Source of the DNA: Escherichia phage PSa2
Direction: 5' to 3' (one strand)
DNA: 64,000 nt
Sequence record: OL770310
Shown here: positions 3,272 through 64,000 of the stretch, one piece after another
How the letters are laid out: each line of letters begins with the position of its first letter
Numbering within the stretch: position 1 is the stretch's first letter
Position numbers and translations under genes: made by a program
The notes under the pieces: generated by a model
What the model saw: only the letters and a program-made list of their open reading frames with translations
Told to the model about the DNA's origin: nothing
The model's database searches: none

Positions 3272-4126
3272 CTACACCGTAAATGGATATGCAATAGCAG
3301 GATGGTGTTCATAGCCACGAACAGTAAAATCATCCTTACTTACCCACGTTAATACATCATCCAAAGTTCTAATATTTGGATTGATTTCTAAAGTAGGAGG
3401 TGCAAAAGGTTCACGATCGAATTGCTTGTGCTCCATCAGAACATTATACTGATCTTCATAGATATGAAGATTGATAATCTTTTGACGAGCAATACCTGGC
3501 TTAAGACCTGTAATCTGTGCCATAATAGCTAGAAGTGCATAGCATTGTACCATATTAAATACTTGGCCCAGCAAGAAATCATTAGACCTCTGGAAAGAGT
3601 TTAGGTATAGTGTATCACCTAAAATAGAGAATTGATGGGTATGCATACACGGACGTAGGCATCCTTTACGAAATTCCCCAGGGTTCCAAAAAGTTAAAAT
3701 TTCTCCACGATCGTCAATCCCTCTTTTCAAATTATGATAGACTTTGGCTAACTGATCAAATACCATACCATCAGAATTAGTCCAATGACGTCCTTGAACA
3801 CCATAGACTCGTCCCATATCATCTTCGCCTTTACGGAATGGATTACCTAGCCAGGCAATATTTTCATTTGCATTAGCATTCCATGTATTAACACCAATAG
3901 CGCGGAATTGTGCTGCTGAGTCGTACCCACGGAGATATCCGATCATTTCCATTATTGCTTGTTTAGCAAATGCTTTACGAGTAGTTACTAGCGGCAGTTC
4001 TCCTGCTCCTACGTTAAAGGTAAAGTCTGCATCAATAATGGTTAGGCAACGAACCCCCGTTCTAGGATTCGTTACCCATACACCCTCTTCTAGAATACGT
4101 TTTCCAGTTTCAATATATTGCTTCAT
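3272..4126 (-). CDS. thyA: thymidylate synthase
   Basis: Conserved ThyA motifs including active-site region [10 protein letters not shown] and [20 protein letters not shown]; ATGA overlap with the downstream gene. Confidence 0.9.
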
Positions 4127-4653
4127 TTAAATATCACCAATTCTTGTAAGAAAGAAAGTGTTTTATCTGCATTCTGTCCTGCTACATAGTCCATTCTAGT
4201 TGCCATTGAATTAGTTAAAGTAATGTGATGATGCAGATGTACATCAGCAGATAATGGTGTAGCTGAAGTAATAGTAGAGATATACGCCATATCTAGATGA
4301 TTTTTGACATACATTTCAAGAAGCAGAGTTGCTCCCCCTAATACTACAGTTACTTCTTCCTTGAGGAAATCAGGTAGACTGTATCCAATGTTACTTATGC
4401 GTGTGGCTGATCCTACAGAGTTAGGTAGTGGTCTATTTGCATAAATAAATAGGTCAGAATCTCCTAGTATTCTTTTTTGCAGAGTCTCAGGGAATGCTAA
4501 CCAAGTTCCTGCTCCTACAATAATATTGTCAGGTGCTAGAGAATCCAAAGTAGCATAGAAGATATCTAGTTCTTCTTTGAAAGAACCCCAAGGGAGCTTA
4601 CCATTGAGGCCGAACTCCCCATTCGGCCCAGTTGCATAGATTGCTGCTATCAT
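4123..4653 (-). CDS. frd: dihydrofolate reductase
   Basis: 176 aa between thyA and nrdB; N-terminal [22 protein letters not shown] resembles the DHFR NADPH/folate-binding start. Confidence 0.7.
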
Positions 4654-5798
4654 TAGAACATATCCTCAAATTCGTTGCCAAGATCTTTCAGAGTATCAGC
4701 AGAGGTTTCAGTTACTTGACCTACACGGTACGCTGCACCAATCTGAATCTCTTGCGGAGCAGGTTGTAAAGATGTAGTATCCAACCAGTTCATAATCCAC
4801 GGAATAGGGTTCTTAGTAATTACAGGTAAGTGGCTTGGCCATTCTACACCAATGTGCATAAATGCGTTACGTCCTACAAAGTAAAGGTATTCTTCAAGCA
4901 GTTCTGCATTCAAACCAATCAGACTGCGGCCTTTAAAAATAAAGTGACCCCATTCAATCTCAGTTTTCAGAGTTTTCAGGAGTTGTGCTGGTGCTTTAGC
5001 TAATGCTTCATCTACCAGATCTTTATCAAACTGCTGGAACATAATCTGGATGATAGCTTTAGACATTTGAGTATGCAGAGCTTCATCTTTAGCGATTAAT
5101 TGCAGGTTCTTAGCAATACCTTGCAGAATATCGTTCTCTGCTAGAGCAAAGGTACATGCAAAAGATGCGTAGAACTGCATTGCTTCCAGACCGTAGATTG
5201 CAAAGTAAGCATCTAACAGCTTAGCCTGAGTTTCACGTTTAACTTCAGGGAACTCAGTTTCTGGATAAGTATTATCACCCTGATGATCACGTACTGCAAG
5301 GAAATACTGACCTAACAGATACAATTCATCAAACAGTTCAACAGAATCTGCGATACGTGCAAATGCTTCTTGGTTTTTAGTTACAGAATCAATAAATTCT
5401 GCTGGGTCAGTCAGAACGTTACGAATAATGTTACTATACGCACGGCTATGTAGATCTTCGAAGTAGCTCCACTGCTTGAGCATACCTTCCAATTCAGGAC
5501 GGCTTACAAGTGGCATAATAGCTGCCTCAGGAGCACGACTAATGAAAGAATCTGTTTGAGTTTGCCACGCTAAGTTCAGGAGAGTAATTTCCTGGATATC
5601 ACGCGGAAGGTTTGGCCATTGTTTCTTATCAGCTTCCAGACTGATTTCAGTTTCAGTCCAAAATTGAGAACGTTGCAGAAGTGCTAGACGCTCAAGTTCA
5701 GGATGTGCTACACGAACGTAATCTGCGATACCAAGAGAATCGCCCAGGAAAAGGTCAGCGTTAGTATGATCCCAATTCAGGTTTAGTAAAGTAGTCAT
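4653..5798 (-). CDS. nrdB: ribonucleotide reductase class Ia small subunit
   Basis: 381 aa ferritin-like protein immediately downstream of nrdA; typical NrdB length and helix-rich sequence. Confidence 0.85.
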   Translation of the reverse strand: MTTLLNLNWDHTNADLFLGDSLGIADYVRVAHPELERLALLQRSQFWTETEISLEADKKQWPNLPRDIQEITLLNLAWQTQTDSFISRAPEAAIMPLVSRPELEGMLKQWSYFEDLHSRAYSNIIRNVLTDPAEFIDSVTKNQEAFARIADSVELFDELYLLGQYFLAVRDHQGDNTYPETEFPEVKRETQAKLLDAYFAIYGLEAMQFYASFACTFALAENDILQGIAKNLQLIAKDEALHTQMSKAIIQIMFQQFDKDLVDEALAKAPAQLLKTLKTEIEWGHFIFKGRSLIGLNAELLEEYLYFVGRNAFMHIGVEWPSHLPVITKNPIPWIMNWLDTTSLQPAPQEIQIGAAYRVGQVTETSADTLKDLGNEFEDMF

Positions 5799-5904: not shown

Positions 5905-8235
5905 TTACAGGTTACAACCACCTGATGCACAACCTGCTGCTTCTTCACCAGCTCCACCACCATTTTCAGTGTTGAAGTTAGCGTAGTACCAAGTTTTCCA
6001 ACCGTACTTAACAGCAGTCATGAAATCACGAACTACTACTGGACCAGGAATGATTTCATTCTCAAACTTGGTGTAGTCATAGTACATATTTGTACTGATA
6101 GACTGACTGAAAAATTTCTGCATGGTTGCTACCCATTTGATCCACTCGATACGATCTACATCATAAGCCAGTTTATAGCTCATTAATGTATCCCAATTAG
6201 TTGCACCTGGAGCAATTGCAATTACTTTATTCACTGCACTACCCTTGATAGATACGATCTTACGAGGCGGTTCGATAGAGTTAGTAACACCTAGCAGTAC
6301 AGAGGAACTTTCACCTGGCATCTGAGCAGTCAGAACAGAGTTACGCATACCATATTTCAGAATATCTGCACGCAGAGATTCCCAATCCATTTCTAGACCT
6401 ACAGTTACCAGTTCATCAACAGTTTTCTTATACGTGTCGATTACCAGAGTTCCTTGTGAAGGCTTAGTACGATTAAACCAGTCACATGCACCCTGTTCTT
6501 TGGCCAGACGTACAGAGGCTTTGTGCAGGAAGTAGGACAGCTTTTCAGCTTCACGGTGAATCCAGTTACGTGCTTCAACACCTTCGTAAGCCAAACCTTC
6601 TGCTGCCATTGCACCTGCTGCGTTCATCAGACCAATACCAACGTTACGACGTTTCTTAGCCGTGTATTCCATAGTTGGGAATGGATAATCCTGAATCTCA
6701 ATGATTGTATCAACGAATTTCAGAAGGATGTAGCAAGTTTTCTCCCATTCAGCCAGAGATTCCATGCGGCCTAGTACAACACCACCTAAGTTACACAGAG
6801 ATACTTCACCAATATCTTCTGGACGCATATCGTCTAACTGATCTTGGGTTTTATACAGTTCCGTAACGTGATGGAATGGACGGGTTGGCTGAGTAATTTC
6901 AACACAAAGGTTGGTCATACGAATCGGGTCAAGGAAGTTACCATGACGGTTAGATTCACCAATGTGATGAGCATACATACGCCCTGTTTCCATACGGATA
7001 CGTAACCAAGTATCTAGGATTTCTTTTGCAGAGATTCTAGGAGCTGCTGGAATTGTTTTTCCTTCGTGGTCGATCTTTGTAAGAGATGCCACACGTTTCT
7101 CCGCTGCCACGTAGATTTCTTCAAACTTAGCCTCATCTTCACCATAAAACGCTTCATGAACTTCTGGTGCGTAGAAGTAGGACATTAGCGTAATATCTTC
7201 GTTTTTCAGGTAACGTTTTAACAGAAGGTTGTTAAAGCTCAGAGAATAATCCATCTTATCGATTTTATTCTCGTCTGTAGCACGTTGCTGCTTAACCTGC
7301 ATCAACTGAATGATTTCAGGATCGAAGTATGGATAAGACACAGTAGCAGAACCGCCACGGGTTTGCTGAGTGTTAGCTTTTACTGAACGGTCAATGTGTC
7401 GATAATATGGCAGTTTTCCGGAATGCGGGAATGCCCCATTTCGCACCGGATCAGCAATTGATCGGCTTTCAAGATGATACCCGATTCCCGCTCTGGCTGC
7501 GACCATTTTGAAGACGATATGCTCGGCTGTGTCGATTGAATCGAGGGTATCAGTACTATCAACAAGACAACAAGAAGCAAAACCGCGGTCGCTGCTCCTA
7601 AGACCCACGAGAGGTGGAGTCGGCACGTTGATTTTATGGAGTGACATTGCGTTGTAGAGGTCGATTGCATCGAGAATTGTCCAGTTAGGTTGAGATAACA
7701 TCGCCATTGCCATACCCATATAGGCAAACTGCGGGGTTTCATAAATTTCACCAGTTGCAATATTACGACGAGAATACTTGTCGAAGAACTGTTTCAGTCC
7801 ACCACTGGTGAATAAACGATCACGATCATGATCAATAACTTGGTTCAGAGCGTCAAACTGATCATCGCTAATCCATGCACTCATGTCTTCCCAAGCGCCT
7901 GCACGAACCATATGATCGTGGAAGAAACGCAGAGAAGGAGGTTCAAAGGAATCATATAGGCGTTTACGCATCTGCGCAAGACGTAATTCCTTTGCTACAG
8001 TATCATATGCTGGGTTGTCTTTGATAAGACCTTCAGCGGCTTTAATTAACACATCTTGGAGTGTATCGGAGTCTACAACACCTTTGGGTAGATTTTTCAG
8101 GGCAGCCATAACTACGGCAGACCAACTTACGTCAGTATCTTTACATGCCCATGCAGCCCAATCATTGAGTTTTTCAGGAGCAAAGTCCTGAACAGTACCG
8201 TCACGTTTAATTACTTTTTCGATGCGATGGCTCAT
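5905..8235 (-). CDS. nrdA: ribonucleotide reductase class Ia large subunit (ORF track start 8295; SD-supported start 8235)
   Basis: ATP-cone-like N-terminus (VIKRDGTVQDFAPEKLNDW), barrel motifs, C-terminal Cys pair (CASGGCNL). AAGGAAA SD precedes the Met at 8235. Confidence 0.9.
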   Translation of the reverse strand: MSHRIEKVIKRDGTVQDFAPEKLNDWAAWACKDTDVSWSAVVMAALKNLPKGVVDSDTLQDVLIKAAEGLIKDNPAYDTVAKELRLAQMRKRLYDSFEPPSLRFFHDHMVRAGAWEDMSAWISDDQFDALNQVIDHDRDRLFTSGGLKQFFDKYSRRNIATGEIYETPQFAYMGMAMAMLSQPNWTILDAIDLYNAMSLHKINVPTPPLVGLRSSDRGFASCCLVDSTDTLDSIDTAEHIVFKMVAARAGIGYHLESRSIADPVRNGAFPHSGKLPYYRHIDRSVKANTQQTRGGSATVSYPYFDPEIIQLMQVKQQRATDENKIDKMDYSLSFNNLLLKRYLKNEDITLMSYFYAPEVHEAFYGEDEAKFEEIYVAAEKRVASLTKIDHEGKTIPAAPRISAKEILDTWLRIRMETGRMYAHHIGESNRHGNFLDPIRMTNLCVEITQPTRPFHHVTELYKTQDQLDDMRPEDIGEVSLCNLGGVVLGRMESLAEWEKTCYILLKFVDTIIEIQDYPFPTMEYTAKKRRNVGIGLMNAAGAMAAEGLAYEGVEARNWIHREAEKLSYFLHKASVRLAKEQGACDWFNRTKPSQGTLVIDTYKKTVDELVTVGLEMDWESLRADILKYGMRNSVLTAQMPGESSSVLLGVTNSIEPPRKIVSIKGSAVNKVIAIAPGATNWDTLMSYKLAYDVDRIEWIKWVATMQKFFSQSISTNMYYDYTKFENEIIPGPVVVRDFMTAVKYGWKTWYYANFNTENGGGAGEEAAGCASGGCNL

Positions 8236-18439: not shown

Positions 18440-18468
18440 TTGCTTTCAGGAAAAATTTTCTGTATAAT
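18440..18468 (+). promoter_or_regulatory. early promoter module (TTGCTT-N17-TATAAT)
   Basis: -35 18440..18445, -10 18463..18468, leader AGATTCATAAATTTGAGAGAGGAG, ATG 18500. Confidence 0.65.
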
Positions 18469-56618: not shown

Positions 56619-57101
56619 TTAAGCCTCCGGCGCAGGGTTGATAGTTGTTACGCACTCATTAGAAGTAATGGAAGTAGATTTACTATCCGTTACAACAACT
56701 TTGTAAGTACCAGCATCTTCTGCAGCAGCTGTAGCTTTGTTGAAATTAGAGCCAGTAACACCACTAAGTGGAGAACCGTCTTTAGTCCAAGCATAAGTAT
56801 ATGGTGCAGTACCACCAGTAACTGTTACGCCCAGATTAATTGCTGCACCAGTATCAACAGCTAGAGTTTTAGCCAGATTCTTCGTGAAAGCTATAGCCGG
56901 AACAACCGGAGCAGTAACTTCGTATGCTTCTTTGAACTTATTCCAAACCTTGCGGTTGGTATGTGCAGTGGTCATTCCAAACTCTTTACGTAGAGTAGCA
57001 TAGTTTGGAACGAACTTGTGTGCTGCAACCGTAGCAAAGAAGATATGAGATTCTGGCAGCTTTTCACCAAAAATGGCCTTTAGACCATCATAATCAATCA
57101 T
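56619..57101 (-). CDS. capsid decoration protein with Ig-like domain
   Basis: C-terminal Ig-like segment TVTGGTAPYTYAWTKDGSPLSGV...GTYKVVVTD. Confidence 0.55.
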   Translation of the reverse strand: MIDYDGLKAIFGEKLPESHIFFATVAAHKFVPNYATLRKEFGMTTAHTNRKVWNKFKEAYEVTAPVVPAIAFTKNLAKTLAVDTGAAINLGVTVTGGTAPYTYAWTKDGSPLSGVTGSNFNKATAAAEDAGTYKVVVTDSKSTSITSNECVTTINPAPEA

Positions 57102-58315
57102 TCTTTATCCCCATCGGCAGTGCCTTGCGGTCTACCACCTTCTTGACCAGATACACCTGTTGCAGAACCAGCAACGTTAGCAGGAATACGAATCTTATTC
57201 ATCTGCTCATCATCTAAAGGTTCAAGGTTAAGCTCTTCACGAGCCTCGTTACCAGTCATGATACCGTTATTAACCAAAGAGGTTAAATGTTTAGCCTCAG
57301 CTTCTTTATCTGGCGTCAGTGCAGCTACTTCCTTAGTATTAGGAGTAACCTTGTAGCCAAAGAAGAAAGTAAGAGAACTAGTCAGCTTGTTCAGCATAGG
57401 AATGATAGTCATGTAATAGAACAATTCGATGTTTGGTCGAATGTTAGCATTATTACCACCATCAAGTAACACTTGCGGAACACCAAAGGCAAGACAGATG
57501 GATTTATTAAATCCTTCGATATCTTCCTTGAAGTCTAGATCTTTAAAAGAGGATATTTGGGAGTACGGTTTTGCTTTCATACCACCATCTAGAATCAGGA
57601 CAGTAGACTGACCCGTACTAGGATTATAATCGAGTTGTAATTCTTCTTGTTTACGCTCACGCAATTTCTTGTTCAGGATTTCATCCGTCTCAAGAATAAG
57701 ACCAATCACTGTGCCGTTATCGAGGAACTTCTCTTTAAAGTTAAGCATTTTAGAACGCTTCTCAAGAGAGTCAATAACTGTAGCAACACGAGATTGTCCA
57801 GAAATTTGGGAGTTTGTGCCACACACGTAACTGTTATCCTTTATAAAGATAATCTCATCTACGCGATAGTCTATCTGGTTATTAAATATAAATTTTTTGA
57901 TAAACTTATTGGCATCTGCCTCTACTTGCATTAGTGCAGCAGGGACATGGTAAAGTGCTGTGCCATCCCAATAGATGTATGCACAACCCTCAAAAAGTAG
58001 GTCAGTGACTACAAGTCTACGGAATGTGCTTATATCCATGAATGGATTAGGTCGTACATTTAAGAGAGTGTCTAGAGTCTTTGCCTTGACGCCGTTAGCG
58101 TACGTGACAATATTATATTTATCTCCGACAGTATAAGAACACTCCGCCGCACTATCTATAACCATGTTAGCAGTTCGGTTGAGAATCTCAATCTTACTGT
58201 AGGCTTGTCCAGTGGTAAATGGCTTACGGTTAGTGCGATGACTAACTGGTTCCATGTCTCTTATAATACGTTGACCCGGATTTAGCTTTTCAGTAATCCA
58301 GCTTTTTAAACCCAT
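57098..58315 (-). CDS. portal protein
   Basis: 405 aa ORF between terminase/HNH and protease. Confidence 0.7.
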   Translation of the reverse strand: MGLKSWITEKLNPGQRIIRDMEPVSHRTNRKPFTTGQAYSKIEILNRTANMVIDSAAECSYTVGDKYNIVTYANGVKAKTLDTLLNVRPNPFMDISTFRRLVVTDLLFEGCAYIYWDGTALYHVPAALMQVEADANKFIKKFIFNNQIDYRVDEIIFIKDNSYVCGTNSQISGQSRVATVIDSLEKRSKMLNFKEKFLDNGTVIGLILETDEILNKKLRERKQEELQLDYNPSTGQSTVLILDGGMKAKPYSQISSFKDLDFKEDIEGFNKSICLAFGVPQVLLDGGNNANIRPNIELFYYMTIIPMLNKLTSSLTFFFGYKVTPNTKEVAALTPDKEAEAKHLTSLVNNGIMTGNEAREELNLEPLDDEQMNKIRIPANVAGSATGVSGQEGGRPQGTADGDKE

Positions 58316-58839
58316 TATAAGAACCTTGCGAATCCTGATTTAGTTTCAGTCTTGACTTGTGTCTTTTCTTGAGGATTCTGTAGCTTTTCCTTTTGTTTAA
58401 GAACCCATGCCTTCTGCTTATTAGCAGAGAAAAGGGGAGGTTCTTTAGTGTACACCTTATGTAATAGTTGGTGATGGTGGACACAAAGGGTAACAGTGTC
58501 GTCTACTAGCTCATGCCTATATCTTTCATAGAATGCCGTCCTATTTGAGAGGACTGTTTCTTCGTTAGTGAAATCCAACTGGAGTTCTTTAGCAAATTTT
58601 TTAACTAGTAGAGACACTGTATGGTAATGATGAAGCTCTAATTCTTCACCACAACCACAGATTTCGCAGCGATCGGCTTTTTTATATTGACTTTTTATAC
58701 CGTCTCGCATGAGTGATATAGCATCACGTTTATATTTTACATTTCCTGCCACAGTATTCTCCTCAACTGTATGAATATAGTATACATAATCATGTCGAAT
58801 TTGTAAAGGGGATTTTAAAATGCAGGAATGGGATACCAA
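58315..58839 (-). CDS. HNH endonuclease-like protein
   Basis: CEICGCGEELELHHYH...N...LCVHHHQLLH: Cys/His pattern of the HNH motif. Confidence 0.6.
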   Translation of the reverse strand: MVSHSCILKSPLQIRHDYVYYIHTVEENTVAGNVKYKRDAISLMRDGIKSQYKKADRCEICGCGEELELHHYHTVSLLVKKFAKELQLDFTNEETVLSNRTAFYERYRHELVDDTVTLCVHHHQLLHKVYTKEPPLFSANKQKAWVLKQKEKLQNPQEKTQVKTETKSGFARFL

Positions 58840-58866: not shown

Positions 58867-60183
58867 TTATTTCCCACGGGAAATTGAGTAAATTCCATAA
58901 CGCAGTGCGTCACAAAGGTGAGAGTTCGCATCATGACGTGGTTTTTCACGTGATAATTTCTCTTCGCCTTCCTGGAAGTCCCACTTGTAGTTCGCTAGGG
59001 CGTGGATCAATGAGGTACATGAAGCATCTACGATGATCTTGCCTTGCTGGAACAGTGCTTGCAGACATGCCAAACCATCTAGGACAGATTTCTTAGCAGG
59101 TGCAGAAGCGATTTCATGTTCATATGCTAAGTCCTGACGGAACTGAGCAGCAGCGGAGTCTACAAATATACGATCAACATTATAACGATCTATGCAGTGT
59201 TGGATATAAGCAGCGTGTTGAGCTGTAGTCTTTTCAGCTTGCTGATATTCTTCCAGTACGTAATAAACATCTTCATCGTAGTGATACTTAATAGTAAGAA
59301 CTGCTGTAGGATCACGATAACCAACGTCGATACCAAGTAATGTTTCGAATGCCTCATCATCTTTAAAGAAGTGACGCATACCTTTAAGGTCTTTAACATG
59401 CTCGATAGCATTGAAGGTATCAAAGATCTGACCTTCGAATACAGAGAAGTCAGCCTCATATTCTTGACGGAAGTAGTTTTTACTAACAGTACGACGAGCT
59501 TCCTCGATATCGTTTAGGTCAGCACGTGGGTTATCACGATACGTACCATGAATAGATACCCAGTTAGGTAACGTTTCATTAAATCCTTTTTCGTAGAACT
59601 CTTTGAACCAGTTACCACCACGAGGTGTAGAAATAAATAGAGCTTTAGAGTTTGGTTTATCTAGGGTAGGACGTAACTGAATATCGAAAGCTGCACCACC
59701 AACATCGGAAATAGCTGCTTCGTCAAAAATGATGAAGTCATAGGAACGACCAACCGCGGAGTCAGCCTGGGCCGCAGAAGCTAGTTTAAAGAGAGAACCA
59801 TTTGCTAGTTCAATCTCTTTATCTTTTGCGTTCTCACGTTCAGTCTGTAATCCATACTTCTTAATAAGACCACGAATCTGTGACCAACCTATGTTAGCCA
59901 GTGAGTAGTTAGGTGCAACTACTAGCACCTTCACATTGGGTTCCAGAAGTTTTAAGAACCCAAGAGTATATGCGATGAACGACTTACCTACACGACGTGA
60001 TACACATGCGGTCACGAAACGGTGTCTTGGGTCTTCCAATGCATTAATAATTGCAATTTGAGGGGCATTAGGTGTAATTCCCTCTTGTGCTAGGATGCTA
60101 GAGACTGGTAGACGAAAGAATCGTTTGTCAATACCAAAGTCAATAACATCTGTGGTGTTAATATAGTCTCTAGAGACTTTCAT
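58867..60183 (-). CDS. terminase large subunit
   Basis: ATPase Walker A-like ACVSRRVGKS and Walker B DFIIFDEAA; C-terminal nuclease-size region; 438 aa. Confidence 0.85.
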   Translation of the reverse strand: MKVSRDYINTTDVIDFGIDKRFFRLPVSSILAQEGITPNAPQIAIINALEDPRHRFVTACVSRRVGKSFIAYTLGFLKLLEPNVKVLVVAPNYSLANIGWSQIRGLIKKYGLQTERENAKDKEIELANGSLFKLASAAQADSAVGRSYDFIIFDEAAISDVGGAAFDIQLRPTLDKPNSKALFISTPRGGNWFKEFYEKGFNETLPNWVSIHGTYRDNPRADLNDIEEARRTVSKNYFRQEYEADFSVFEGQIFDTFNAIEHVKDLKGMRHFFKDDEAFETLLGIDVGYRDPTAVLTIKYHYDEDVYYVLEEYQQAEKTTAQHAAYIQHCIDRYNVDRIFVDSAAAQFRQDLAYEHEIASAPAKKSVLDGLACLQALFQQGKIIVDASCTSLIHALANYKWDFQEGEEKLSREKPRHDANSHLCDALRYGIYSISRGK

Positions 60184-60665
60184 TATCTCTTACCTCCTCC
60201 TGCTAGAGCAGTAATAAGATTCATATAGTTTTCGTCACCACTTCCAGCAATAATATTATTCTGAATGTTAGTCTGGTTAGCCGGAGTACGGGCTGCTGCC
60301 TTCACTTTCTCCAGTTCTACCATCATTTTCATTTCTTCCATTTTCATCTTGTGCGCCTTCCAGAGAATATCCATGATATCCTGGTCAGAGCCCATGCCAG
60401 TTTCTTCGAGTTCTTCCAACTTGCGCTTGATAACTTCATCAAGAACCCCAAACAAACGGTCGCGATTACGGAAGCCACTTTCCATAAAGATATCGTTAAG
60501 ATAGTTTTTAACTTCCCCACGATTCATTATATCACGAAATGCAATCTCGGACATCCCAAGACTACGAGCAGCGGCAGGAACATCACTACCACACTGTAAA
60601 TAGGCTTCAATAACATCCATGCCTTCGGGAGACATGAGATCAGGAACTAATACATCATTTGCCAT
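60183..60665 (-). CDS. putative terminase small subunit / DNA-binding protein
   Basis: 160 aa with HTH-like [17 protein letters not shown]; ATGA-coupled to the large subunit. Confidence 0.5.
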
Positions 60666-60675
60666 ATATCCTCCT

Positions 60676-62457
60676 TTAGGTTAGGCGTTGAACTGTTACA
60701 CGTAGTCTTGGTAAGAAGATAGCAGCTGCTTCGGCAGCATGGATAATAACGCCTAACTCAACGTTACCATTACCAAGGTTTTTTACTGTATAAATATACC
60801 CATTTCTACGAAAAGCCATCTCATCAGGTCTACTAGCCCACGTTTGGGTATAGCTATATGAAGTTGTACTGTGATATGGTACTAGATAGCCAGGTGGCAG
60901 AGTAAGAATCTGATGAAATACACCATCACCAGCTGTATAACTTTGTTGACGTCTACCTTGTACCTGCCAAGCACTACCCCCATAAGTACGCACAGGCATT
61001 CCAGCAGTATTAAGATTACCCATAATAACTTCAGTAGTTAATATAACAGTAGAGTGAGCATTTGGTAATCCCAACCAAACTGTGGCCAAAGGTGTGTAGA
61101 AGTCACCAGCACCAGGGTAGGATGGAGTTATATCATCCCCAACATAAGTACTCGCAACGTTGCCTGGGAATAATCTAAGTGGTACGGTACTAGGACTCCA
61201 TACAGGGCCATGCTCATTACCTATAGAGTTGGTATTAGTATCTACATACCACTGTTTACCAACACCAAATTTATAAAGGCTAATTTGAGAAGCAGCACCC
61301 CCATAGTTAACAGGAGACCACAAACCCCCATTACTAGAGCCGATAAATTCACATCGTGCAGTATTATCACCAAAAACTCCGGTATACGCGGTATTATTAC
61401 CAACATACTCCATATCAGGGCGATAACCTAAGTTTCCAAAAGCATTCTGGTTAATAAATTTATAGCCTGAGTTGGGTAAGCTAACACCTTTAATAGTAAA
61501 GTTAGATGGAGATATCAGGATATCTGAACCAGTAAATGGATTACCAGAAATCCCCATACTACCATTAGAATAGCGTAGATTTAGCACATACCAAATAACT
61601 TTAGTAGGTGTAACATTATACCAGTCTTGCACATATACCTTTCTAGCTGACTGAGCAGCCATATTAGAAGTAGAACCTCTACAAACATATATTTTTTCTG
61701 GATATGCAGGAGATTGGTAAAGAACGTTTACGTTATCTGGTAGTACACCTTTTTTACCGGCAAAGCCACGAATATTGGAACTACAAACGTAAAACCAATC
61801 ATGACCTCTACCAGCAGACCCGATAGGCGCTTGCCAGTTAGGCTCCCAATAGTCTGCATTACCACCATCTATAGGAACTGTAGATACACCCGTTGGAAAG
61901 CCCATTAATCTCCAGGCTCTGGAAATAGCTTCACCAGCAGAAACACCACCAGGTCTAAAGATCTGGAAACCGGAAGATTGTAGCAAAGTACCGCCAGTTC
62001 CTTGTCTAGCAATAGATTCCTCATGACCTAGGCTACCATTATAAATATAGGTACCATGAGCTAAACTATCCCCGATTGCAAAGGCAGATGTTATTGCCAA
62101 TTCAGCACCCGCACGTGGTTGGTCTTCAAAGAATGTTAAAAACTGGCCAACCTGAGATTGTGTACCATTAAGGAAACCCCTATGAGTACCATTTATCTCA
62201 ATAGCAGTTAATATAACTCTACCAGGATCATTGGATTTAATGTTTATAATATCCCAAGGCATCTGAGTAACAAAGTACCCATTACCTGCATCACCTAGGG
62301 CAGCCTCATAAGTCCCATCAACTAGGACGAAGGGCATATCTGAGTGGAAGATACTATTAGTATTTGGAGAGTAGTGCTGATTTATATCACCACCATTAGC
62401 AGCGTTTAGAGATAATACAGTTTTACCATCACTAAATTTTCCTGCGAAAAAACTCAT
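60676..62457 (-). CDS. receptor-binding protein (pb5-like), receptor unknown
   Basis: 593 aa Gly/Asn/Tyr-rich protein heading the late operon, divergent from a lipoprotein gene as for oad/llp in T5-like phages (recalled). Confidence 0.55.
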
Positions 62458-62482
62458 ACAATCTCCTTCTTTAAAAATGTAT

Positions 62483-62511
62483 TTGCTTAGATCCCTCTAT
62501 TTTGCTATAAT
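62483..62511 (+). promoter_or_regulatory. early promoter module for lipoprotein gene (TTGCTT-N17-TATAAT)
   Basis: -35 62483..62488, -10 62506..62511, leader ATATTTATAAATTAAACAGAGGAAC, ATG 62541. Confidence 0.65.
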
Positions 62512-62540
62512 ATATTTATAAATTAAACAGAGGAACAATT

Positions 62541-62807
62541 ATGAAAAAGTTACTAGCCATCGTAGTTGCAGCAGTAGTGTTGACGGGTTGTGTACCGGCT
62601 CCCGAGCCATTCTGTAAGGCATACGTGAAGTCTTATGGTCATGTTGGTGAAGAACACTATGCTTTAGATATTCGAGAAGCACGTACTGTAGGCTACCGAT
62701 TCCCTAAAACTCAGTTACGCACTAAGTTTGGGTGGTGGGATTTGTCACAGTTTGATCTCAAATATGGCGATTGCAAATTTAAACTAGAACAATCTGGTCA
62801 CTTGTAA
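62541..62807 (+). CDS. llp: lipoprotein, Llp-like (candidate receptor-blocking superinfection-exclusion protein)
   Basis: Signal peptide with lipobox MKKLLAIVVAAVVLTGC; divergent from the RBP gene. Confidence 0.6.
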   Translation: MKKLLAIVVAAVVLTGCVPAPEPFCKAYVKSYGHVGEEHYALDIREARTVGYRFPKTQLRTKFGWWDLSQFDLKYGDCKFKLEQSGHL

Positions 62808-62881: not shown

Positions 62882-63196
62882 ATGCAAGATGTAGAAAAGT
62901 CCTTTCAGGAACCTGTTAACTTTGAAATAGATCCCAGAACTAAAGCAATACATAATGCGATTAACGAAATCATTCAAGACGTCATAGAAGATACAATAGA
63001 ATACGTGATGGGAACATCCTTCTTACTAGAAGAGTCCGGCTTCGATGAAGTAATGGATCTTATCGGGACAGTCATAATGGTTCGTGCAATTGCTAGGATA
63101 TTCCAAATACCAGGACTACAGGAGAAGCAAAGAGATGTCAGACGACAACAGAAGAAAGAACAGACGCGGGGAAGTGTACGAAAGTTGGATAAATAG
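62882..63196 (+). CDS. hypothetical protein
   Basis: 104 aa ORF; partly overlapped in another frame by ORF 63084..63269. Confidence 0.35.
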   Translation: MQDVEKSFQEPVNFEIDPRTKAIHNAINEIIQDVIEDTIEYVMGTSFLLEESGFDEVMDLIGTVIMVRAIARIFQIPGLQEKQRDVRRQQKKEQTRGSVRKLDK

Positions 63197-63269
63197 TTTC
63201 GGATTCGGAACTGTATTATTCTTTATCTTTGTACTCTTTTGGTTAGCAGCTATGGCGGGGTGGTTATAA
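63084..63269 (+). CDS. small membrane protein (alternative start 63135)
   Basis: C-terminal TM helix FGTVLFFIFVLFWLAAMAGWL. Confidence 0.3.
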   Translation: MQLLGYSKYQDYRRSKEMSDDNRRKNRRGEVYESWINSFGFGTVLFFIFVLFWLAAMAGWL

Positions 63270-63372
63270 TGGAAGTAGTAATTATTGCTTTACTAGTTGT
63301 GGTAATTATCGGGCAGTGCATTTTAGATAACCACCTAGCTCGTATCGAACGTAAGCTGCTGGGAGATAAATA

Positions 63373-63567
63373 ATGGATTGGTTAGGACTTATTACACTTG
63401 TAGTATGGATTGTCTGGATTGTTGGATACATGACGTCACATCGTAATCGTATACAGAAGCTAGAGGATAAAGTCACCCAACTAAACATTAATATGGATAA
63501 GTTACTGGACTCCCAACGTAATGATCGGGCACGTATTCACCAACTTGAGAGGGAATTAGATGTTTAG
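63373..63567 (+). CDS. small single-pass membrane protein
   Basis: N-terminal TM LGLITLVVWIVWIVGYM then coiled-coil-like charged tail. Confidence 0.45.
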   Translation: MDWLGLITLVVWIVWIVGYMTSHRNRIQKLEDKVTQLNINMDKLLDSQRNDRARIHQLERELDV

Positions 63568-63805
63568 CTTTGTAGCTATCTTCATTATCGGAGTGCTTGC
63601 TGGGATCTTCGGAACACTCGGGGCGATTAATAAGCATCGTGAATATATTGCGGGAGTATCGCGGGAGCTTTCGGAAAGGGAGCGGAAGTTTGCGGAGAAA
63701 CGTGCGGAGTTTGAGCGAGAGTGGTCGGAGGGATCTCGGGCGTCGCGGCGGAGATTTCGTATGTCAGAATCGGGAGATAAGCCAGTAGATAGGAGAAGTT
63801 CATGA
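63560..63805 (+). CDS. small single-pass membrane protein with Arg/Glu-rich tail
   Basis: TM FSFVAIFIIGVLAGIFGTLGAI then ERERKFAEKRAEFEREW..RRRF, encoded by a purine/GC-rich GCGGAG-like repeat. Confidence 0.45.
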   Translation: MFSFVAIFIIGVLAGIFGTLGAINKHREYIAGVSRELSERERKFAEKRAEFEREWSEGSRASRRRFRMSESGDKPVDRRSS

Positions 63806-64000
63806 TATTTAAGAAAATCCCTGATGAAATAGCTGGTAGTTTTTCATATGATCCAGATACGGGGCGATTCCTGCCTATTATAGGGTATACTAAGGAAAGT
63901 GAAGGTTATCTCATATATCGTCACCCACAGTTCGGAGAGTTTAGAGTGCATCGCCTAGCTTGGTGGTGCATCTACGGAGAAGATCCCGGAGAATCTCTCC
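63802..64000 (+). CDS. HNH-family homing-endonuclease-like protein, partial (runs off right edge)
   Basis: Manual translation MIFKKIPDEIAGSFSYDPDTGRFLPIIGYTKESEGYLIYRH...FRVHRLAWWCIYGEDPG resembles the HNH_3 N-terminal pattern (GYL..., VHRL...). Confidence 0.45.
   Translation, partial: MIFKKIPDEIAGSFSYDPDTGRFLPIIGYTKESEGYLIYRHPQFGEFRVHRLAWWCIYGEDPGESL

Follow-up and report, generated by a model that had tools for sequence, protein, structure and literature searches.

A predicted BtuB host-recognition module in Escherichia phage PSa2: a pb5-family receptor-binding protein divergently paired with a BF23-type lipoprotein

The closest described systems to the locus considered here are those of phages T5 and BF23, in which a receptor-binding protein (RBP) gene and a gene for a lipoprotein, llp, lie divergently beside the terminase genes and form a receptor-binding/receptor-blocking module (PMC8624392, PMC10644984). 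The T5 pair, pb5 (Oad) and Llp, is of the FhuA type and is represented by structures 8a8c, 8b14, 8a60 and 7qjf. T5 Llp occupies the periplasmic face of FhuA, where the plug is held in a non-native state and the extracellular loops EL7 and EL8 are folded inward over the pb5 site (PMC9586334). Other T5-like phages use other transporters; dependence on BtuB is found in the literature for JNwz02, EPS7, SPC35, BF23, DT57C and phiR2-01. In this study, we analysed a 64,000-nucleotide stretch of Escherichia phage PSa2 (sequence record OL770310; hereafter the window), which contains a gene for a 593-residue protein divergently paired with a gene for a small lipoprotein. Gene structure, homology, fold, the position of the RBP within the BtuB cluster and promoter conservation together make it very probable that this locus is the BtuB host-recognition module of an EPS7-like phage, composed of a BtuB-binding RBP and a BtuB-inactivating Llp. 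We infer, by analogy, that this exact sequence has the same functions as its close relatives.

The window belongs to an EPS7-like, T5-type siphophage of the genus Epseptimavirus (Demerecviridae, Markadamsvirinae). The 3.3-kb region holding the RBP gene and llp is 97.7% identical to EPS7 at the nucleotide level, and at least 80% of it is spanned by over 200 records of T5-like phages; the adjoining 24 kb of head and tail genes shares 98.9% nucleotide identity with the BASEL phage SuperGirl (Bas29). SuperGirl (MZ501105) encodes an identical Llp and an RBP that is 99.2% identical to that of PSa2, differing at 5 of 593 residues (S142G, R183G, D197E, S330T and T356A). Salmonella phage JNwz02 (MZ570151) likewise shares Llp completely (100%) and the RBP at 98.0% identity, while the Llp of EPS7 (CP000917) is 98.9% identical. 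These three phages agree with PSa2 in gene layout, spacer and promoter, and the records of relatives label the two genes as 'receptor-binding (tail tip) protein' and as 'receptor-blocking' or 'superinfection exclusion protein'. The module is therefore nearly identical to those of published and annotated phages and is already known, its relatives having been characterised experimentally. In the EPS7 record the RBP gene (3667-5541) is split into two open reading frames (ORFs) of 327 and 250 residues that lie in different frames and carry no CDS annotation, whereas the PSa2 copy is intact at 593 residues; the split is probably a sequencing frameshift.

By sequence comparison and structural modelling, the 593-residue protein is a member of the pb5/Oad/Hrs family of receptor-binding proteins with a predicted pb5 fold. 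Its match to PHROG 4815, 'receptor binding tail protein', covers residues 1-593 (E 1.2e-282), and a phmmer search of the PDB returned two T5 pb5 chains (E 2e-46), with the N-terminal 188 and C-terminal 320 residues aligned and the middle unaligned. An AlphaFold2 model built with 37 homologues had a predicted local distance difference test (pLDDT) score of 91.4 and a predicted template modelling (pTM) score of 0.91. The only significant Foldseek matches of this model in the PDB were again T5 pb5 (8b14_B and 8a8c_B; E 3.5e-31 and 9e-28, TM 0.61-0.68). Scans of the Pfam and NCBIfam libraries assigned the RBP to no family. In the protein database every RBP homologue has a precomputed assignment to Pfam family PF26860, and the copy of Pfam-A that we scanned returned none; the two resources are apparently out of step. 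Nothing closer to the RBP than T5 pb5 was found in the PDB, and the structure of a BtuB-type RBP has therefore not yet been solved.

Which receptor the RBP recognises can be predicted from the company it keeps. We compiled a matrix of pairwise RBP identities against phages of known receptor, with S124 (NC_048013) representing the FepA type, and obtained three well-separated groups corresponding to BtuB, FhuA and FepA. PSa2 falls within the BtuB cluster, with identities of 98.0% to JNwz02, 83.0% to SPC35, 76.1% to Hrs of BF23 (than which it is 2 residues shorter), 65.2% to DT57C and 60.2% to the Yersinia phage phiR2-01; identity is 35.7% to Oad of T5 (FhuA) and 32.4% to the S124 protein (FepA). 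The same three RBP clusters were described for the BASEL phages, in which cluster position predicts the terminal receptor (PMC8594841). In a tblastn search, the RBP was also 94.8% identical to that of S133 and 90.2% identical to that of S126, both given as BtuB binders (PMC12980165). Furthermore, a 2026 genome-wide screen listed 23 BtuB-binding Demerecviridae that carry a homologue about 30% identical to pb5 (bioRxiv 10.64898/2026.04.02.716166). Since the RBP falls in the BtuB cluster and the cluster predicts the receptor, the predicted receptor is almost certainly BtuB and not FhuA. Among the nearest relatives, deletion of btuB abolished plaquing by JNwz02 and reduced its adsorption from 91% to 8% (PMC11014889), and BtuB dependence of EPS7 is attributed to Hong 2008 by the papers that cite it (PMC8594841, PMC11014889).

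An original prediction, made from the letters of the window alone, had pointed out that the RBP is shorter than T5 pb5 and that its receptor may therefore differ from FhuA. The length difference is real (593 against 640 residues for T5 Oad), and the identities above (35.7% to T5 against 60-98% to the RBPs of six BtuB phages) bear out the suspicion about the receptor. The alignment with pb5 and Llp homologues of known specificity that it proposed as a check placed both proteins with the BtuB type. A receptor other than BtuB, whether FhuA as in T5, FepA as in H8 and S124, or a new one, with a lipoprotein that blocks that receptor instead, is in our judgement extremely improbable. The PSa2 RBP is homologous to the FhuA-binding pb5, the lipoprotein carries the label 'Cor' in PHROG and RefSeq, a family best known for blocking FhuA, and small changes in an RBP could in principle switch its receptor. 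Set against this are the low identities to the T5 and S124 proteins compared with the near-identity to JNwz02, for which there is btuB knockout evidence, and the 60-83% identity to four further BtuB-dependent phages, of which even the most divergent, DT57C and phiR2-01, still use BtuB (PMC4728585, PMC8624392). An apparent counter-example, a FepA phage 'S124' with an 83%-identical RBP, proved to be a clash of names: the phage concerned is vB_SenS_S124 (OK108607, China), not the FepA phage S124 (NC_048013, Denmark).

Divergence between the PSa2 RBP and pb5 is unevenly distributed and is high at the sites of contact between pb5 and FhuA. In the FhuA-pb5 structure, four pb5 loops enter the barrel, namely L1 with Gln115 at its tip, L2 with Phe170 at its tip, L3, and L4 at residues 570-590 (PMC9586334). 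Residues 91-150 of the PSa2 RBP, which span the equivalent of the L1 tip, are 17-20% identical to T5, with T5 Gln115 aligned to PSa2 Pro114, and in the alignment loop L4 is partly deleted. The block of lowest identity to T5 is 241-270 (13%), which lies in the middle region that phmmer left unaligned to pb5. The first 30 residues, on the other hand, are 57% identical to T5 and 80% identical to the FepA-type protein. This pattern is consistent with a common scaffold in which one end would sit on a conserved straight fibre and the other would bear receptor-specific loops, the role of the N-terminus in attachment being suggested by its conservation.

The divergently encoded lipoprotein begins with MKKLLAIVVAAVVLTG followed directly by CVPAP, and has a classical lipoprotein (Sec/SPII) signal peptide (residues 1-16) with the lipobox L-T-G-C at residues 14-17, as the original prediction had read it. 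The predicted lipidated residue is Cys17 (codon at 62589-62591), leaving a mature protein of 72 residues with further cysteines at positions 9 and 62 in mature numbering. The Pfam lipoprotein-attachment family LPAM_1 scored 18.6 bits, slightly below its cut-off of 20. Position +2 is occupied by Val, and the protein therefore has no inner-membrane retention signal. Llp matches PHROG 1119 (E 1.2e-23) and is 67-69% identical to the Llps of BF23, SPC35 and DT57C across all 88 residues. Its database family is small, forming 10 clusters at 90% identity, every member of which is 87-89 residues long, with E values of 1e-31 to 1e-36 against the PSa2 protein. This family shows no variation at G16, C17, C25 and C78, and next to none in the C-terminal half (RFP..QLRTKFGWWDLSQFDLKYGDCKFKLEQS and ...FGWWDLSQFDLKYGDCKFKLEQS). 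The Llps of BF23, DT57C and SPC35 differ from those of Epseptimavirus in the N-terminal half of the mature protein, whereas the C-terminal halves are nearly identical, and the Epseptimavirus proteins form a distinct subtype.

Function has been demonstrated for close homologues of this lipoprotein. When DT57C Llp, a protein with a single residue changed relative to BF23 Llp, was expressed from a plasmid, plating of both BF23 and DT57C fell more than 100-fold while T5 was unaffected (PMC4728585); for BF23 Llp, that paper quotes six orders of magnitude from Mondigler 2006. By analogy, the data support the view that PSa2 Llp is a BF23-type Llp that would block the phage's own receptor. It could be argued instead that the protein happens to occupy the llp position and is an accessory lipoprotein of an unrelated kind, or a factor that excludes other phages. 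We found no published test of the EPS7-type allele, the score of Llp falls short of the cut-off for the NCBIfam Cor equivalog, no Pfam domain in it passes the threshold, and annotation by position can mislead, as it does in the FepA phage S124 (NC_048013), where the 'receptor blocking protein' is a non-lipoprotein. Even so, an unrelated role is very improbable given the full-length identity to BF23 and DT57C Llps, whose exclusion is specific to BtuB phages (PMC4728585), the near-invariance of the C-terminal half with conservation of all three cysteines, and an llp promoter and divergent layout like those of BF23 and T5.

The relationship of this lipoprotein to T5 Llp is more distant. T5 and BF23 Llp have been called non-homologous in the literature (PMC10644984, PMC4728585), and PSa2 Llp is 19.5% identical to T5 Llp. 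Searches of the PDB with Llp, either as a single sequence or as a family profile, gave no match; when the Llp family and T5 Llp were compared by hhalign, the alignment was confined to columns 1-29 (the signal peptide plus the first Cys motif), and we therefore make no claim of direct homology between mature domains. An AlphaFold2 model of Llp with five strands plus a helix at the C-terminus (pLDDT 82.7) retrieved nothing in Foldseek. All three mature Llps nevertheless match positions 17-78 of PHROG 1119 (E 2.2e-14 for PSa2, 2.6e-16 for BF23 and 1.4e-11 for T5), E values to be read with the caveat that the profile may itself contain these Llp proteins. The cysteines are also equivalently placed, at mature positions 1, 9 and 62 in PSa2 and 1, 11 and 58 in T5, where Cys11-Cys58 forms a disulfide joining the termini (PMC9586334). 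T5 shares with PSa2 the genomic position of the pair, the divergent layout, the llp promoter, the RBP fold and the PHROG of its Llp. The Cor proteins of T1, phi80, N15 and HK022, small lipoproteins of the outer membrane by which a TonB-dependent transporter serving as phage receptor is inactivated, belong to PHROG 1119 as well, and RefSeq labels homologues of PSa2 Llp 'Cor superinfection exclusion protein'. The NCBIfam equivalog lamb_exclu_cor scored Llp at 13.7 bits against a cut-off of 31, and Cor acts on FhuA and is encoded near the tail-fibre genes of lambdoid or T1-like phages.

These similarities suggest that PSa2 Llp is likely a distant homologue of T5 Llp and would share its mode of action, jamming the plug of BtuB from the periplasm. 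The other way to block BtuB would be direct occlusion at the cell surface. An early in vitro study, to the extent that it is discussed in PMC9586334, placed T5 Llp outside the cell, we found no structure of a BtuB-Llp complex, and direct evidence that the mature domain is homologous to that of T5 Llp is weak. In T5, however, the lipoprotein is seen at FhuA's periplasmic face, and we consider surface occlusion by PSa2 Llp improbable.

In the record of the FepA phage S124 (NC_048013), the entry at 6219-6653, a 103-residue 'receptor blocking protein; T5 Llp-like', is a non-lipoprotein and is the homologue of the 104-residue ORF that follows llp in PSa2. The interval between the S124 RBP gene and this gene is 122 bp and contains no ORF with a lipobox, so that this phage seems to have no llp at the canonical position. 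Trees of Llp that include the S124 sequence (PMC12980165) compare non-homologous proteins.

Conservation of the module extends to the llp promoter. The -35 and the extended -10 elements (Table 1) are separated by a 17-nucleotide spacer, and the hexamers are invariant in the seven phages aligned (PSa2, EPS7, JNwz02, BF23, SPC35, DT57C and T5), although the coding sequences that flank them are not alike in the T5 and BtuB types. We counted 11 copies of the pattern TTGCT-N17-19-TATAAT in the window, where 0.30 would be expected from chance. Apart from the llp copy, the remaining 10 are confined to its first 22 kb (1090-21892), with genes for ribonucleotide reductases, DNA ligase and similar functions. 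Genes for nucleotide metabolism and replication such as these are expressed early in T5. Since the promoter class of llp otherwise occurs only in this region and with early-type genes, the sequence strongly supports the prediction that llp is driven early by a strong sigma-70 promoter. An early promoter had been proposed for the lipoprotein gene from the outset, and the match of its -35 and -10 elements to the BF23 llp promoter upholds this at the sequence level. A generic consensus promoter scan did not list the llp promoter because its -35, TTGCTT, fits the consensus at just three of six positions. Of the 10 further copies, the five between 1 and 9.5 kb are on the minus strand and the five between 11.6 and 21.9 kb on the plus strand, an arrangement suggestive of two diverging sets of transcription units in the first 22 kb; the copy at 18440-18468 is very similar to the classical T5 promoter P_N25, familiar from the pQE vectors. 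On the minus strand of the spacer, inspection by eye for a late promoter of the RBP gene revealed weak sigma-70-like candidates only.

Considered together, these features lead to the following proposed sequence of events. The RBP would sit, in monomeric form, on the tip of the straight central tail fibre, where it would bind BtuB, the vitamin B12 transporter, irreversibly and so trigger opening of the tail and ejection of DNA. Llp, expressed early, would be exported, lipidated at Cys17 and sorted to the outer membrane, and is probably closed by a disulfide between Cys9 and Cys62 (mature numbering). There it would inactivate BtuB on the infected cell, such that phages using the same receptor could not adsorb and progeny would not be lost to debris. 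It would most likely act on the periplasmic face and plug of BtuB, closing the extracellular loops allosterically, by analogy with T5 Llp and FhuA.

The gene structure on which the module rests is summarised in Table 1. The divergent pair was placed exactly in the original prediction, with every feature ascribed to it present, and its likeness to the T5 oad/llp arrangement holds for the setting as well as for the genes. A distance of 83 bp separates the two start codons. Because matches to PHROG and hundreds of syntenic phage records exist for both, the two ORFs are real genes and not chance. The RBP gene is followed on the same strand by genes for TerS, TerL, an HNH-like ORF and the portal protein, and therefore heads the packaging and structural block, which agrees with its earlier description as heading the structural operon; TerS is in the equivalent place, and the gene order is shared, in T5, SPC35, DT57C and JNwz02. 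From this gene order and from T5, the RBP gene would be a late gene co-transcribed with the terminase and structural genes.

Table 1. Coordinates of genes and expression signals at the RBP/llp locus of the PSa2 window.
Feature	Position	Strand	Details
RBP gene (oad/hrs homologue, predicted BtuB-specific class)	60676..62457	-	593 aa, ATG start
Shine-Dalgarno sequence AAGGAG of the RBP gene	62463-62468 (plus-strand numbering)	-	read from sequence; unchanged in the 7-phage alignment
llp -35 TTGCTT	62483..62488	+	same columns as the annotated BF23 -35 (DQ097178); A-tract AAAAAT ahead
llp extended -10 TGcTATAAT	62503..62511	+	TG at 62503-62504, TATAAT at 62506-62511; aligned with the -10 annotated for BF23
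Shine-Dalgarno sequence GAGGA of llp	62530..62534	+	6 nt 5' of the ATG, read from sequence
llp, predicted receptor-blocking (superinfection-exclusion) lipoprotein precursor	62541..62807	+	88 aa
Terminase small subunit (TerS) gene	60183..60665	-	PHROG 3802, E 2.2e-90; next gene after the RBP gene, 10-nt gap
Terminase large subunit (TerL) gene	58867..60183	-	Pfam Terminase_6N and Terminase_6C; PHROG 2
Portal gene	57098..58315	-	downstream of TerL and the 174-aa HNH-like ORF

Several neighbouring ORFs were also of note. The 174-residue ORF between TerL and the portal gene (58315-58839, minus strand) contains Cys/His motifs together with a weak match to HNH endonucleases (PHROG 3497, E 7e-68; PHROG 8048, E 2e-5); EPS7 has just one 100-residue hypothetical protein annotated at this place, and the ORF is likely a homing-endonuclease-type insertion. 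On the other side of the module, directly 3' of llp, lies an acidic ORF of 104 residues (62882..63196, plus strand; PHROG 16810) that is conserved in S124 (NC_048013). No terminator-like site precedes it and one stands right behind it (63193-63214). This ORF and llp may share a transcript initiated at the early promoter. PADLOC found no match for Llp or for this downstream ORF. Further along the plus strand, four small overlapping ORFs of 61, 44, 64 and 81 residues (63084-63805) with hydrophobic segments mirror the single-transmembrane proteins T5.159-162. The last ORF, at 63803-64000 on the plus strand, runs past the end of the window and resembles an HNH homing endonuclease (...FRVHRLAWW...); the SuperGirl record has a 'putative homing endonuclease' annotated at this place.

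The existence of a distinct Epseptimavirus subtype of Llp invites one further possibility, namely that the EPS7-type protein is a functionally distinct BtuB-blocker allele that forms a separate exclusion group and travels with its own RBP subtype. We regard this as rather doubtful. If true, the EPS7-type Llp might, for example, be tuned to the BtuB of Salmonella as opposed to that of E. coli, or might confer no cross-protection against BF23-type phages, and the 'BtuB-type' T5-like phages would not all exclude one another.

The structural side of the module is represented in the PDB by T5 pb5 and T5 Llp only, with no BtuB-type RBP or Llp among its entries. A structure of BtuB with either protein would show whether the 'reverse allostery' by which the plug of FhuA is proposed to be jammed extends to other TonB-dependent transporters. 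This is a question already known in the field and is not one raised by the PSa2 window. For the phage itself, the RBP and Llp would be the determinants of its terminal receptor: PSa2 would need BtuB for infection, and would exclude other T5-like phages that depend on BtuB. Loss of btuB is the expected route to resistance, and the annotation is therefore useful in the design of phage cocktails.

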